Shown here piece by piece: positions 10,103-43,401 of a stretch of 55,954 nucleotides of DNA. The notes beneath the pieces were generated by a model that did no database searches, had not been told where the DNA came from, and worked only from the letters and a program-made list of their open reading frames with translations. This DNA is from an uncultured Erysipelotrichaceae bacterium (GTDB lineage Bacteria > Bacillota_I > Bacilli_A > RFN20 > CAG-826), in the NCBI GenBank assembly GCA_902797795.1, contig CADBUF010000070.1:1-55954 (forward strand), read 5' to 3'. The position numbers and the translations under genes are program-made. Position 1 is the first letter of the stretch. Every line of letters starts with the position of its first letter.

Positions 10103-10609
10103 ATGTCCTACCTAGAATATAAACCAGCAATATGGGACAAGATTTTTGTTAATGAAAAGGCAAACCTTCATTTTCATTTGCCCCAATATAAATTTAATGT
10201 TGAACATATTGGAGCAACATCAGTTCCTAATTGTCGCTCCTTTAGAAACGTTGATATTATGATTTCTTTGCACGACTTCAAAGACATTCATACGGTAGCG
10301 TTATTATTAGCAACCAAGGAATATAAAATCATCAAAGAAAGATCAACTCCTGACTGCATGGTTTTAGCAAAAACTCATAAATATCAAAAGGTTGGAGTAA
10401 CAATAAGAATTGTTCAATACGCTGGAAGATGGTTTAATCGTTGTCATGCTTTCTTAACTTTGTTAAGAGAAAGTTATGATCGCGTTATAAAATATAACAA
10501 TTTCAGGGAAGAACTATTTGTCAAAGTTAATGGTAATATAGCTCAATACAACCAAATTAAAGGTAACTACATCAATTCAATTATTGATGACAATTTTAAA
10601 TTCGAATAA
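10103..10609 (+). CDS. GrpB family nucleotidyltransferase-fold protein (divergent)
   Basis: YKPAIWDKIF..E N-terminus, VEHIGATSVP, VDIMI, C-terminal YN..K..YI. Confidence 0.7.
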   Translation: MSYLEYKPAIWDKIFVNEKANLHFHLPQYKFNVEHIGATSVPNCRSFRNVDIMISLHDFKDIHTVALLLATKEYKIIKERSTPDCMVLAKTHKYQKVGVTIRIVQYAGRWFNRCHAFLTLLRESYDRVIKYNNFREELFVKVNGNIAQYNQIKGNYINSIIDDNFKFE

Positions 10610-25883: not shown

Positions 25884-26321
25884 ATGTTAAAAATTGCAGT
25901 TGGAAGTGATCATGGCGGACTAGAATATAAAAACGCTATTAAAGAGCATTTAGAAAAAGAAGGTTATATTGTAATTGATGTTGGAACATATACAAAAGAT
26001 AGCTGCCACTATCCTATTTTTGGTGCTGAAGTAGCTAAAAAAGTTTCTAACAAGGAATGTGATTTCGGCGTAGTTGTTTGCACTTCAGGCGAAGGAATTT
26101 CAATGGCGGCAAACAAAATTAAGGGTGTTAGATGCGGTATTGCCTATAACGATGATGTAGCTAGATTAATGAGACAGCATAATAACGCTAACGTAATATC
26201 TTTTGGGCAAGCGTTTATGGAACTCAACGATGTAATCAGGAGAGTAGATATATTTCTAAATACAAAGTTTGAAGGCGGTAGGCATCAAACAAGGGTCGAT
26301 TTAATATCAGAATTAGAATAA
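25884..26321 (+). CDS. rpiB: Ribose-5-phosphate isomerase B
   Basis: GSDHGG, CTSGEG.SMAANK, HNNAN, FEGGRH..R. Confidence 0.93.
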   Translation: MLKIAVGSDHGGLEYKNAIKEHLEKEGYIVIDVGTYTKDSCHYPIFGAEVAKKVSNKECDFGVVVCTSGEGISMAANKIKGVRCGIAYNDDVARLMRQHNNANVISFGQAFMELNDVIRRVDIFLNTKFEGGRHQTRVDLISELE

Positions 26322-26340
26322 GTTACTCTTATAAAAATTG

Positions 26341-26372
26341 GTCATTGCTTTATTGGGCGATGACTTTTTTTT
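26341..26372 (+). terminator. Intrinsic terminator of the prfA-rpiB operon
   Basis: GTCATTGC...GCGATGAC stem followed by T8. Confidence 0.8.
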
Positions 26373-26505
26373 ATTTTTTCGAAAAATTTTTCGATATAAC
26401 GACTATTAAATATATGAGAGGACTTTTTATGAAATATCGTCAAAGACATGAACTCTAATAGTGTATTAATTATTAATCCAAAATCTATATCAGAAAGGAG
26501 AATAA

Positions 26506-26829
26506 ATGAGCAAGAAAAAGATTTATAACAAGCACTTAGAAGAAGGACGTTTTTATATACATAGCGATGGTCATGGAGGTCATCCAGCTCTCCTTTATAA
26601 GAAGAGTGACAAGAAAAATGTTTATTTTGTCATTGTTTTCACATCATCACCAGGCCCAAAAAGAAAACAGCTTAAACACAGTATTGAACCAATTAAGATA
26701 AAATTTTCTTTTGTGCATAATACGCCAAAAATTAGTTCTAGGCGTGAACTAGGTAGAAAACCTATGAATGGATTAAAGATAGATAAAGAAGACAAGCCTC
26801 TTATCGAAACCATAAAAAGAAAAAAATGA
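26506..26829 (+). CDS. Small basic hypothetical protein, PemK/MazF-like endoribonuclease candidate
   Basis: Strong SD AGAAAGGAG. GRFYI..D...GHPALL......VIVFTSS resembles the MazF/PemK G.IY...RPALV......IV.PITS pattern; resemblance judged by eye only. Confidence 0.55.
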   Translation: MSKKKIYNKHLEEGRFYIHSDGHGGHPALLYKKSDKKNVYFVIVFTSSPGPKRKQLKHSIEPIKIKFSFVHNTPKISSRRELGRKPMNGLKIDKEDKPLIETIKRKK

Positions 26830-26868
26830 TTCACAAGACCGTTTAACGATCTCTACGTGCGAATCACT
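26814..26868 (-). ncRNA. Candidate ~50-nt bulged-hairpin small RNA convergent with the 107-aa ORF
   Basis: 11-bp + 7-bp stems with 3 G-U pairs valid only on the minus strand; U7-C-U5 tail; upstream TTGCAT-17-TTAAAT promoter-like element. Confidence 0.45.
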
Positions 26869-26904
26869 ATATATATTTAATCAAAAGAAAGGAGATGATG
26901 CAAT

Positions 26905-28068
26905 ATAGAAACTTATAAATGTCCTATTTGTGGAAACACCGATATTCATTCGATAGGAATATTAAATGGCAAGCCATATTGTCGTAGATGCATTTCTTTT
27001 AAAGGTGAAGAAGTAGAACATAAACCATCTTATCCAAAGAAAGCACCTATATATCTAGAATATGAACTATCTCCAGAGCAAAAAGAATTATCGGATAAGT
27101 TAGTTGAGAACTATAAGAAAGGAATTGATAGTCTAGTTTATGCGGTGTGCGGATCTGGAAAAACAGAGATCATTCTTAAATGTATTCAATATTGTATTAA
27201 TTGTGGAGATAAAGTAGCGTTTGCAGTACCTCGAAAAGATGTATGTATTGAATTATCAAATAGGTTAAAAACTATTTTTAATAAAAATAAAGTAATCTCC
27301 TTATTTGGAGGACATACAAAAGAAACAAAAGGAGACATAATTATTCTCACCACACATCAACTATATCGATATAAGAGCTATTTTGACTTAATCATTCTAG
27401 ATGAAATAGATGCATTCCCATTTAAAGGAGACAAAATACTTGAAGCAATGTTTTATTCATCTTTAAAAGGACATTATATAATGATGAGTGCCACCCCTTC
27501 TAAAGATGTAATAAATCATTTTGAAAAACCGGGTAAAGATATATTGAAATTAGATATTAGATTTCATCATAAACCATTACCAGTTCCTAAGTTTATAAAA
27601 GGACCAACCATACTGCTCTTTATTCGTATGTTATTTCTACTAAAGAGATATACAAAAGAAGGAAAAAGAGTCTTTATATTTGTACCTACAATATCAGAAT
27701 GCGAGCAGTTGTTTTTATATGTTCATCTATTATTTAAAAATGGTAATTATGTTCATTCAAAAAGGCGAAATCGAAGTGAGATAATCGATGCTTTCCGTAA
27801 TAAAGTTTATGACTATTTAGTAACAACATCAGTTTTAGAAAGAGGAGTAACAATGCCCAATTTGCAGGTAATAATCTATAAAAGTCATGAAAAAATTTAT
27901 GATAAAGGAACATTAATTCAAATTTCAGGAAGAGTAGGAAGAAAGCAAAACGCTCCCTATGGTGACGTGATTTTTTTGGCAAATAAAATAACAAAAGAAA
28001 TGGAGGAATGTGTCAGTGAAATTAATAGAAGCAACAAAGTACTGCAAGATATGTTTCAATCAAATTAA
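26905..28068 (+). CDS. comFA: ComFA-like DEAD/DEAH helicase (competence), with non-canonical or damaged start
   Basis: Frame open from ATA 26905 encoding CPIC..CRRC, AVCGSGKTE, DEID, SATP, TSVLERGVT, QISGRVGR; the ORF-track start at 27145 is internal. Confidence 0.8.
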   Translation: METYKCPICGNTDIHSIGILNGKPYCRRCISFKGEEVEHKPSYPKKAPIYLEYELSPEQKELSDKLVENYKKGIDSLVYAVCGSGKTEIILKCIQYCINCGDKVAFAVPRKDVCIELSNRLKTIFNKNKVISLFGGHTKETKGDIIILTTHQLYRYKSYFDLIILDEIDAFPFKGDKILEAMFYSSLKGHYIMMSATPSKDVINHFEKPGKDILKLDIRFHHKPLPVPKFIKGPTILLFIRMLFLLKRYTKEGKRVFIFVPTISECEQLFLYVHLLFKNGNYVHSKRRNRSEIIDAFRNKVYDYLVTTSVLERGVTMPNLQVIIYKSHEKIYDKGTLIQISGRVGRKQNAPYGDVIFLANKITKEMEECVSEINRSNKVLQDMFQSN

Positions 28069-41715: not shown

Positions 41716-43401
41716 TTATTTAAGTGAATTGATTAAACCACCAATACCTTGTTCTTTCAATATTTTTATGTAATCACCTAATAAATTTACTATGAGTTCG
41801 TCTAAGGCATTCATTGATCTCATTTCAATATCAGCGTTGTCATCATAAAGACGATAACCGGTATCTTGATATCTTTTTAAACCAGTAATTTCATTGGTCA
41901 TTTCATATATAACACTTTGGTAATCTTCTTTAACCGAAGCGACATTTTCAAGTTCTTGCTTAACGTCTTTAACTCCGTTATAGGCAAAAACTTCTACTCC
42001 GGTTCCTTTACCAATTGTATATAAATTACCAAAAACAGAAATAGCGGTGTCGCATAACGTATGAGACATGCTACCAGGAGTGTCACTATTCATGTTGATA
42101 TTCATCATCATAAGACCATCATAATTGAGATGTTTTTTCACTAAAGTGAAAAATTCCACTGTTGTCATATGAAATGGAGCGCTTATTGATGTGTAGGCAT
42201 CAACTAAAATAATGTCGTATTTATCATTTGTTCTTGCTAAAAAATTTCTTCCATCATCACATATAACATTTACAGTTGGATTCATGTGGAAATATTCATA
42301 AGAAAGATCGATGATTTTTTGATCGATTTCAATCGCAGTAATATGACAATTTGAGTTCATATAGTTTTTCATCATTGTGGCGTATGTTCCAGTTCCATTA
42401 CCAAGAATTAAAATCTCAGGATTGTCTTTGACTAAATATTTGCTACTTAAAAGATAGTCATAATACATTCCAGTTAAAGAATCATCATCTTTAATCATTG
42501 ATTGAACACCAAATAGAATGTTGGTACTTAGATATGTAGCGTTATCCTGACGATAAACTTTCAAATAATTATAAGTGGATTCTGTTTCTTTAATCGTTCC
42601 TTTTTCTTCCCACAAGGTGAATGAAGCATTAATAGAAAAGATCATTCCCACAATAAAAGTAGCGGAATATATACAAGTTAACACGATAGAGCGTATGAAC
42701 CTGCGCTTTTCTTTTTTGCCATCTTTAGTTGAAGTGACTTCCACTTCTTCTTTTCTTGGTTTGTTTTTATAGATTTCAATGAACGAAGTTATCACATAAA
42801 GTAAGCCAACTAAAGCGATTAATCCACCAAAGAGAACAAAGGAATTGCTTGTTCCGATAAATGGAATAGTTAAAAAGGTTGGCAAGAAAGTACCTAATAT
42901 AGAACCAACAGTGTTCAAAGCTTCTAATAAGCCAATGACTTTACCGCTAACTTTTTCTCCCATCGCATATTTAATCAAGCTAGGAGTAACTTTGCCTAAA
43001 AATAGTAAAGGAGGAACAAAAAGAATGATGCATGAGAATAACGCCGCCCAAATTACAAGGTTATGAGTTATAAAAAGAGCAAAGAGAACACTAACACCAA
43101 CAATTACATATTTGCCAAGGAAAGGAATAAGAATGATATAAACACCTGCAAAAGATAATTCTAAATACAATCTTAGATATGATGGTTTTTTATCAGCCTG
43201 TTTTCCACCCCAATAGTTCCCAACTGCCATAGCAATCATAATGACGCCAATAATAAGAGTCCAAACGACTTGGCTAGAAGAAAAATATACAGAGATGAGT
43301 CTTGACGCACTCATTTCAATTCCCATAAGACATAGTCCAACAAGAGCCTCTGTAATGAAATAATAAGTTTTACTGTGAATAAATAGCGGTTTCTTTTCCA
43401 T
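41716..43401 (-). CDS. Fused membrane domain / spermidine synthase-like SAM-dependent transferase
   Basis: N-terminal TM helices (GIEMSASR, NTVGSILGTF); C-terminal ILGNGTG, IEID, DDGR, DIILVDAY. Confidence 0.8.
   Translation of the reverse strand: MEKKPLFIHSKTYYFITEALVGLCLMGIEMSASRLISVYFSSSQVVWTLIIGVIMIAMAVGNYWGGKQADKKPSYLRLYLELSFAGVYIILIPFLGKYVIVGVSVLFALFITHNLVIWAALFSCIILFVPPLLFLGKVTPSLIKYAMGEKVSGKVIGLLEALNTVGSILGTFLPTFLTIPFIGTSNSFVLFGGLIALVGLLYVITSFIEIYKNKPRKEEVEVTSTKDGKKEKRRFIRSIVLTCIYSATFIVGMIFSINASFTLWEEKGTIKETESTYNYLKVYRQDNATYLSTNILFGVQSMIKDDDSLTGMYYDYLLSSKYLVKDNPEILILGNGTGTYATMMKNYMNSNCHITAIEIDQKIIDLSYEYFHMNPTVNVICDDGRNFLARTNDKYDIILVDAYTSISAPFHMTTVEFFTLVKKHLNYDGLMMMNINMNSDTPGSMSHTLCDTAISVFGNLYTIGKGTGVEVFAYNGVKDVKQELENVASVKEDYQSVIYEMTNEITGLKRYQDTGYRLYDDNADIEMRSMNALDELIVNLLGDYIKILKEQGIGGLINSLK

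Follow-up and report, generated by a model that had tools for sequence, protein, structure and literature searches.

How might a predicted toxin gene of the MazF type be held in check when no protein antitoxin is encoded beside it? The question arises at ORF107, an open reading frame (ORF) of 107 codons in a stretch of DNA from an uncultured Erysipelotrichaceae bacterium (contig CADBUF010000070.1 of assembly GCA_902797795.1, positions 1 to 55,954, forward strand), which is referred to here, at its full length of 55,954 nucleotides (nt), as the window. ORF107 lies between rpiB and comFA and is faced on the opposite strand by a hairpin-forming sequence preceded by a promoter-like motif. An earlier note on this DNA had proposed a MazF-fold gene paired with a convergent, self-contained hairpin RNA without a protein antitoxin, and the core of that proposal is upheld here by comparative evidence. 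The locus is best described as a variant of the RNA-controlled toxin-antitoxin modules, with a type I layout and a MazF-fold toxin. As the leading mechanism we favor an RNA antitoxin that acts in a type I-like mode, a reading that we place slightly above an even chance. That the RNA is transcribed and the protein toxic, and that neutralization occurs, is our inference from the signals described below. The central features of the locus are as follows.

26493 to 26500, plus strand: Shine-Dalgarno sequence GAAAGGAG, read from the sequence, 5 nt 5' of the ORF107 ATG
26506 to 26829, plus strand: ORF107, encoding a basic 107-residue protein with a predicted MazF/Kid/CcdB-type fold, candidate toxin; ATG at 26506
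26814 to 26868, minus strand: predicted small RNA of approximately 50 nt, i.e., the hairpin (26868 to 26825) and a U7-C-U5 run (26826 to 26814)
26875 to 26883, minus strand: extended -10-like element TGA-TTAAAT, with the hexamer at 26880 to 26875 and a 17-nt spacer that ends in TGA
26898 to 26903, minus strand: -35-like hexamer TTGCAT, on the opposite strand 2 nt upstream of the comFA start codon

The order of the genes is rpiB, its terminator (26340 to 26365 and a T-run), ORF107, comFA, comFC, and secA. The earlier description of a basic 107-residue ORF with a good Shine-Dalgarno sequence, placed between the rpiB terminator and comFA without a protein-antitoxin ORF, was borne out, and CAGAAAGGAG is kept upstream of the ORF107 homologs. 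The gap between rpiB and ORF107 contains only a 37-residue TTG frame, which starts within the terminator, and a 35-residue frame on the minus strand, and no antitoxin-sized ORF was found on either side of ORF107 in the window. No neighboring gene of the MazE/PemI type was found, and the short ORFs upstream of the homologs show no sequence conservation. The MazF/PemK family PF02452 has no match elsewhere in the genome to which the window belongs, which is 85.7% complete. The gene had been called an orphan; this holds for this genome and fails for the relatives, which hold arrays of such modules.

Refolding of both strands reproduced the strand-specific structure that had been described for the minus strand: positions 26868 to 26825 form an 11-bp outer stem, a 5-nt bulge, a 7-bp inner stem, and a 3-nt loop. 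The folding energy is -18.0 kcal/mol on the minus strand (z = -3.44; 0 of 200 shuffled sequences were as good) and -8.5 kcal/mol on the plus strand (z = -1.70; 9 of 200 as good). The plus-strand fold is weaker because the three G-U pairs of the minus-strand hairpin turn into A-C mismatches there, where no G-U pair is formed. The U7-C-U5 tail given in the earlier note is present as a run, except that two of its U's already belong to the stem drawn there, which leaves a free tail of U5-C-U5. Opposite the run, on the plus strand, lie Lys/Arg codons and the stop codon of ORF107, and hairpin and run together are predicted to act as the intrinsic terminator of the small RNA itself. All parts of the proposed promoter (TTGCAT, 17 nt, and TTAAAT preceded by TGn, with an imperfect -10 hexamer) are present, and the ORF list agrees that no minus-strand gene lies upstream for the hairpin to terminate. 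The pattern TTG-N17-TGN-TTWAAT occurs three times in the 56-kb window, against 0.59 occurrences expected. The Rfam search brought no family near threshold in 26200 to 27100. A conserved hydrophobic peptide encoded on the minus strand was rejected as a candidate, since the longest stop-free stretch in the antisense frame concerned varies from 28 to 85 codons in 21 homologs. The additional matches and the minus-strand frame noted in the window are the following.

10410 to 10438, plus strand, and 41732 to 41760, minus strand: the other exact matches of TTG-N17-TGN-TTWAAT in the pattern search of the window
26622 to 26834, minus strand: 70-residue GTG frame antisense to ORF107; the frame is not conserved

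The RNA sequence data for this locus consist of strandless contigs, mostly of relatives and 90 to 99% alike, which carry no information on RNA starts or ends. A search of RNA runs recovered little of the stretch, with no more than 0.16 of the sampled words present. In the four runs compared with it (X1 to X4), two 91-nt contigs of X4 connect the inside of the hairpin with the comFA start (26858/26868 to 26927), and one 170-nt contig of X1 spans 26659 to 26819.

The arrangement recurs in the relatives, which are metagenome-assembled genomes (MAGs) of rumen Bacilli of one genus. Many of their loci appear twice, the same contig having been reached in two ways, and counts of distinct sequences are therefore given where possible; kinship among the units inflates the statistics. 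Downstream of the ORF107 homologs the hairpin is found again, always opposite the strand of the gene, and the U-run after it overlaps the stop codon. TTG stands exactly 17 nt upstream of TT(T/A)AAT in 49 of 51 distinct units, units away from comFA among them; the filter with which units were searched required TGn but made no demand on the -35 element. Of these 51 units, 32 have TTTAAT as the hexamer, 18 have TTAAAT, and 1 has TTTAAA, and the closed hairpin begins 6 to 8 nt past the hexamer in 42. Since the -35 element is kept in units that lack a comFA start, it is not a mere shadow of the ribosome-binding region of comFA.

The homologous proteins fall into approximately eight classes (sorted by eye), each with a different RNA body behind the common promoter. 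These bodies are approximately 40 to 120 nt long and contain one to three hairpins, and in each class the terminator lies on or beside the stop codon. The best sampled is class A, with 26 distinct hairpins, in which 87.9% of the cells in the alignment are paired versus 32 to 46% when the 3' partners are slid by 1 to 3 columns. Changes on both sides are observed in 9 of the 18 pairs, a value reached in 0 of 500 shuffles. A G-U pair at columns 22-51 is present in all 26 hairpins and a U-G pair at columns 34-44 in 24 of them; on the sense strand these kept pairs would be C-A and A-C mismatches. The outer stem, in which UUCG is paired with UGAA, is invariant in the 26 distinct RNAs, and the bulge and the inner stem vary; recent shared ancestry may account for part of this invariance. 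The covariance model R1, which represents the class-A hairpin, matches the window at 26816 to 26876 on the minus strand (E = 7.7e-17), its sole match in the genome of the window. A covarying minus-strand hairpin and a promoter-like motif downstream of homologs, for which the earlier note had asked, are therefore present in 26 class-A hairpins and 49 of 51 units, respectively. The recurrence of the hairpin, the promoter spacing, and the U-run, together with the compensatory changes, is more than chance would give, and the element is, as read from its sequence signals, a putative conserved small-RNA (sRNA) gene that runs towards the protein gene.

The strand on which the structure is kept was examined in two ways. 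In a first test the antisense strand was the more stable in 37 of 42 hairpins, with 90 G-U pairs versus 17. Because those hairpins had been picked by antisense folding, the test was repeated without selection on 74-nt segments around distinct stop codons, and the antisense strand was the more stable in 36 of 43 segments (mean, -14.9 versus -10.3 kcal/mol for the sense strand).

Gene and RNA unit travel together. For 50 of 62 gene copies, a count that includes duplicate loci, an automatic filter detected an antisense unit no more than 200 nt downstream, and 8 further copies inspected by eye, of which 7 had been missed by the filter, all have TTGnnn-17-TT(T/A)AAT, a structured body, and an antisense U-run. 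The class-A covariance model matches 13 of 41 genomes, all of the same genus; every one of the 11 genomes with a class-A protein (E = 1e-45 or better) is among them, and the remaining 2 are others. The module is also found away from comFA: loci L006, L010, L011, and L014 carry gene and sRNA without a comFA match within approximately 1.5 kb, next to genes that appear, from their translations, to be glycosyltransferase-like, ATPase-like, or surface-protein-like. Such modules tie the sRNA to the protein gene and not to comFA. Two of these loci contain orphan RNA units in tandem, every unit having a TTGnnn-17-TTTAAT promoter, a hairpin, and a U-run of its own, and only one unit per locus abuts a MazF-fold gene.

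L010, 1135 to 1514, plus strand: four tandem orphan sRNA units, approximately 93 nt apart
L011, 1153 to 2165, plus strand: five tandem orphan sRNA units

Broken paralogs were also observed. The second copy in L002 (1970 to 2000) is frameshifted in an A-run at codons 3 to 6, which may be a homopolymer error of the assembly, and the copy in L012 (1501 to 1806) has an in-frame TAG; broken copies are common at toxin-antitoxin loci. In class C (L013:1815-1900, L020, L032, and L011:1261-1400), an extra conserved element that starts with GGACTTAGTGCATCGGGCAG lies between the stop codon and the hairpin. This element is much better folded on the sense strand (-29.9 versus -14.7 and -28.8 versus -16.1 kcal/mol), which is where its G-U pairs are formed.

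The protein model, built with AlphaFold (AF2) on 36 family members, has a predicted local distance difference test score (pLDDT) of 88.7 and a predicted template modeling score (pTM) of 0.78. It takes the shape of an SH3-like barrel with a C-terminal helix, i.e., the fold of MazF, Kid, and CcdB. Every row shown in the Foldseek search with this model was MazF, Kid, or CptN (best E = 2.6e-3, template modeling score = 0.50 to 0.59). VIA-align matched it to a mycobacterial MazF (PDB chain 5xe3_A; Z-score = 8.6, root mean square deviation = 3.3, 91 of 107 residues aligned); 22 chains have Z-scores of 8 or more, and CcdB and the type III toxin CptN (4rmo_A) follow with 7.6 and 7.2, respectively. The MazF-type matches span 91 to 97 of the 107 residues, and the VIA match is full-length and to one superfamily. 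AlphaFold model, Foldseek, and VIA-align all answer in the affirmative the question of a MazF/Kid-type fold, which the earlier note had raised, and the claim of such a fold for ORF107 is supported at the level of a predicted model. The product would probably be a sequence-specific endoribonuclease.

The family itself is narrowly distributed. Among 5.8 billion clustered proteins, 199 relatives were found, the best 120 of them at 68 to 94% identity, and among 1.84 billion representatives the family forms 68 clusters at 50% identity. It is present in 16 of the 22 genomes of the genus of the window and absent from all 18 that belong to other genera, and the named contigs with family members are MAGs of rumen Bacilli; the ORF107 family is confined to uncultured rumen Bacilli. 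Searches with sequence profiles gave little. ORF107 matches 0 families of Pfam and NCBIfam at E values up to 10 and has no match in PADLOC or PHROGs; among the 36 family members, a single one is matched in PADLOC (E = 0.047) and a single one by a MazF-like phrog (E = 0.043). The family profile has 0 matches among PDB sequences at E values up to 10. The ESM Atlas neighbors are hypothetical proteins, and one cluster (score, 0.92) with PF02452 on 14% of its members is a lead only. In the family alignment His26 is invariant and Pro27 nearly so, and position 46 varies within the family. The catalytic residues of Escherichia coli MazF are Arg29 and Thr52; an hhalign alignment without significance sets His26-Pro27 on Arg29-Pro30 and Thr46 on Thr52.

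Set beside known toxin-antitoxin systems, the locus comes closest in layout to type I. According to a review (PMC4147584), every Gram-positive type I system that was known in 2014 has a convergent sRNA that overlaps the 3' end of the toxin gene. In txpA/RatA and bsrG/SR4 of Bacillus subtilis and par RNAI/RNAII of pAD1, an opposite-strand sRNA with its own promoter likewise lies at the toxin 3' end. The same overlap is indicated here by sequence signals, namely, the conserved promoter, the hairpin, and the U-run on the stop codon. As in the Gram-positive type I systems, there is no protein antitoxin and ribonuclease (RNase) III is present in the genome (222.5 bits, over the family cutoff). On the other hand, the toxins of these systems are small peptides (TxpA has 59 residues) and almost all type I toxins have a putative transmembrane domain according to that review (PMC4147584), whereas ORF107 has 107 residues, is rich in Lys and Arg, and is modeled as a beta-barrel. 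The overlap here is approximately 50 nt, nearly all of it in the 3' untranslated region, versus approximately 75 to 120 nt in the Gram-positive type I systems, and the sRNA, unlike their antitoxins, contains little besides the terminator hairpin. Among type I systems, SymE/SymR of E. coli has a soluble toxin of 113 residues that is described as acting as a ribonuclease, in place of a membrane peptide (PMC4147584). SymR overlaps the 5' end and the start codon of symE, whereas the RNA described here overlaps the toxin 3' end. SymE has an AbrB/MazE-like rather than a MazF fold. The statement in the earlier note that the locus fits neither RNA-antitoxin class was too strong: the convergent 3' overlap is the Gram-positive type I layout, and type I toxins that are not peptides exist. 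With MazEF and PemIK (Kid-Kis), ORF107 shares the predicted fold over 91 to 97 of its 107 residues; a (G)HP motif stands for the RP of MazF and Thr46 for Thr52 in the nonsignificant alignment. Unlike those systems, the locus has no MazE/PemI gene, no significant PF02452 match, and His in place of Arg.

The type I-like mechanism that we favor would proceed as follows. A sigma-A-type promoter (TTGCAT, 17 nt, TGnTTAAAT) would drive the sRNA, with the start approximately 6 to 8 nt later at the foot of the hairpin, and hairpin and U-run would end the RNA after approximately 50 nt, on the stop codon of ORF107. The sRNA would be the antitoxin, pairing with the complementary 3' part of the ORF107 messenger RNA (mRNA). 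This mRNA probably reads on into comFA, since a stable hairpin and a U-run are both missing from the sense strand; no plus-strand terminator was found between ORF107 and comFA, and the only plus-strand terminator-like site in the scan is that of rpiB. RNase III would then cut the sRNA-mRNA duplex and so remove the toxin mRNA, a mechanism described for Gram-positive type I systems in the same review (PMC4147584).

Several observations weigh against this account of a MazF-fold toxin under antisense control. The sRNA overlaps the coding sequence by no more than the stop codon and a few Lys codons, and antisense action consequently needs an mRNA that reads through the hairpin. The invariant outer stem is not explained by a purely antisense mechanism. 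Shuffled RNAs pair with the translation-initiation region as well as the sRNAs or better. Position 2 of the -10-like hexamer is not the consensus A, and for this reason the generic promoter scan omitted the motif and gave no call. The sense strand is the more stable in 7 of the 43 unselected segments, class C (L013 and L020) included. As for the protein, PF02452 matches just 1 of the 36 family members (E = 0.01, under the cutoff) and not ORF107; hhalign gave no significant alignment to E. coli MazF (probability 0.14, E = 0.43); and a Z-score of 8.6 is middling on the VIA scale, on which partial Tudor/SH3-like matches reach 7.3. Membership of the MazF family by sequence, or sequence-level homology to MazF, is not established. 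Pairing of the sRNA with the translation-initiation region had also been considered as a mode of action and was rejected, as cognate pairs gave -15.4 kcal/mol versus -16.0 kcal/mol for noncognate pairs (11 pairs).

A mechanism of type III, in which the hairpin would attach to the MazF-fold protein itself and obstruct the active site in the manner of ToxI and CptI, is possible, if rather unlikely. The RNA would again be the antitoxin, so that this reading departs from the favored one in mode of action alone, and it would be a single hairpin from a separate convergent promoter in place of units processed from tandem repeats upstream. In ToxIN, CptIN, and TenpIN, an endoribonuclease of Kid/MazF-like fold is neutralized by a noncoding RNA (PMC5086642), and CptN (4rmo_A) matches the ORF107 model with the Z-score of 7.2 given above. 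The invariant outer stem, the fixed G-U pairs, and the maintained orphan units accord with an RNA that a protein recognizes, as in type III: the UUCG/UGAA stem and the two G-U pairs point to sequence-specific recognition beyond duplex formation, each protein class has its own RNA body, and the tandem units of L010 and L011 that overlap no gene fit an RNA that acts in trans. The layout speaks the other way. A type III antitoxin is a same-strand upstream repeat array that shares one promoter with the toxin gene and has a terminator before it, and none of this is found here: the RNA lies on the opposite strand, Tandem Repeats Finder (minimum score, 30) returned 0 rows for 26000 to 27200, and the 145 nt upstream of ORF107 in the window fold no better than shuffled sequences (z = +1.39). 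The class-A invariance, too, may in part be recent common descent.

Some relatives have a CCCCT...AGGGG-U5 hairpin upstream of the gene, without repeats before it. In these the inverted repeat is conserved and consists of CCCCT, a loop that contains TATAAAT, and AGGGG, followed by T5, 60 to 110 nt upstream of the gene, and after it comes a short ORF of 8 to 17 codons whose peptide is not conserved. Repeat and short ORF could represent sequestration of the Shine-Dalgarno sequence or a leader. In the window, the inverted repeat is degenerate, and what is left is a 9-codon ORF (ATG at 26430).

L003, 1410 to 1435, and L010: examples of the CCCCT...AGGGG inverted repeat; window counterpart at 26400 to 26460

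The position of the module directly upstream of comFA-comFC, in the window and most relatives, raises another alternative that we regard as unlikely, namely, that gene and RNA form a regulatory pair. The protein would be a nontoxic RNA-binding protein or RNase, or a CcdB-like binder (e.g., of the ComFA zinc-ribbon domain), and the convergent unit would tune ORF107 and comFA by antisense pairing or polymerase collision. The missing sense-strand terminator between the two genes is consistent with this, as are the His in place of the MazF Arg and the -35 element of the sRNA, which lies 2 nt from a weak comFA start.

26905 to 26907, plus strand: probable comFA start codon ATA, preceded by AAAGGAG at 26888 to 26894

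TGA at 26896 to 26898 closes the comFA frame upstream of this codon, and no ATG, GTG, or TTG start is available. Among 26 distinct comFA or comFA-fragment contexts, the codon at this position is ATA in 16, ATG in 8, and ATC in 2, and by sequence comparison it looks like a conserved weak, noncanonical start codon. A further point in favor of a regulatory pair comes from the arrays described below, where ComFA N-terminal ORFs of 87 to 90 residues occupy the position of a type II antitoxin before the next MazF-fold gene. However, the module also occurs away from comFA (L006, L010, L011, and L014), and multicopy paralogs, broken copies, and orphan RNAs are typical of toxin-antitoxin loci and not of a housekeeping regulator.

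Between rpiB and comFA, loci L007, L008, L009, L012, L013, L017, and L018 contain arrays of a repeated unit made up of the MazF-fold gene, the antisense sRNA, and a 5' fragment of comFA. The comFA fragments share a common junction, at which ...AVCGS is followed by PKT(R/T/S)N(P/T) and a stop codon, then CAGAAAGGAGG, and then the ATG of the next toxin gene. In 6 of the 12 fragments inspected the 87- to 90-residue ORF is intact, and the others are stubs of 17 to 73 residues or frameshifted. This arrangement suggests one ancestral insertion at the Walker A codons of comFA that carried a replacement 5' end, and afterwards unequal crossing-over between the comFA 5' repeats. In the comparison of the window (26905 to 28065) with L002 to L020, ComFA residues 1 to 87, which form the four-Cys zinc-ribbon part and reach up to the Walker A motif, are 89 to 97% identical between genomes, versus 59 to 66% for the rest. 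The identity at third codon positions is 0.62 to 0.82 in the 5' part and 0.47 to 0.54 in the rest. We rejected a recent transfer of the module together with the 5' end of comFA, since a third-position identity of just 0.62 to 0.82 indicates mostly purifying selection on the zinc-ribbon domain.

Quite unlikely, in our estimation, is a new type of toxin-antitoxin pair. Here a MazF-fold RNase would be checked by direct binding of a single bulged hairpin of approximately 50 nt transcribed from its own convergent promoter, with the G-U pairs and the UUCG/UGAA stem as recognition marks and a cognate RNA for each paralog class, and the modules would be spread and shuffled as cassettes by recombination between copies of the first ~84 codons of comFA, through the DNA-uptake pathway in which they are placed.

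That the hairpin is simply a one-way terminator or insulator against stray antisense transcription, behind a promoter-like motif without function, is very improbable. Hairpin and U-run do form a textbook minus-strand intrinsic terminator and the hexamer is imperfect, but TTG-17-TGn-hexamer is present in 49 of 51 units, among them tandems with a spacing of approximately 93 nt that would terminate just each other, and no minus-strand gene lies upstream. Hardly credible is a site for DNA recombination, akin to integron attC, that moves cassettes as DNA and has no role as RNA: the modules do form cassette-like arrays between rpiB and comFA, and outer stem, unpaired spacer, inner stem, and small loop presumably resemble a folded attC strand, but the array junctions lie in the comFA 5' repeats (...CGS/PKT...) and not at the hairpins, and the promoter in front and the U-run behind would have no role.

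To return to the module as a MazF-fold toxin gene with an RNA antitoxin, the pairing of such a toxin with a convergent hairpin RNA did not appear among the best full-text literature matches, type III literature included, as judged from titles and abstracts. MazF toxins are the textbook case of a toxin neutralized by a protein, and the toxins known to have RNA antitoxins are membrane peptides (type I) and ToxN-like RNases with upstream repeat arrays (type III). If the reading is true, these classes would be linked by a MazF-fold family that has a convergent hairpin RNA as its sole conserved partner, and one toxin fold would be found under three different kinds of control. The rumen Bacilli would then possess a compact RNA-controlled RNase module of approximately 0.45 kb, with several naturally distinct protein-RNA pairs for comparison.

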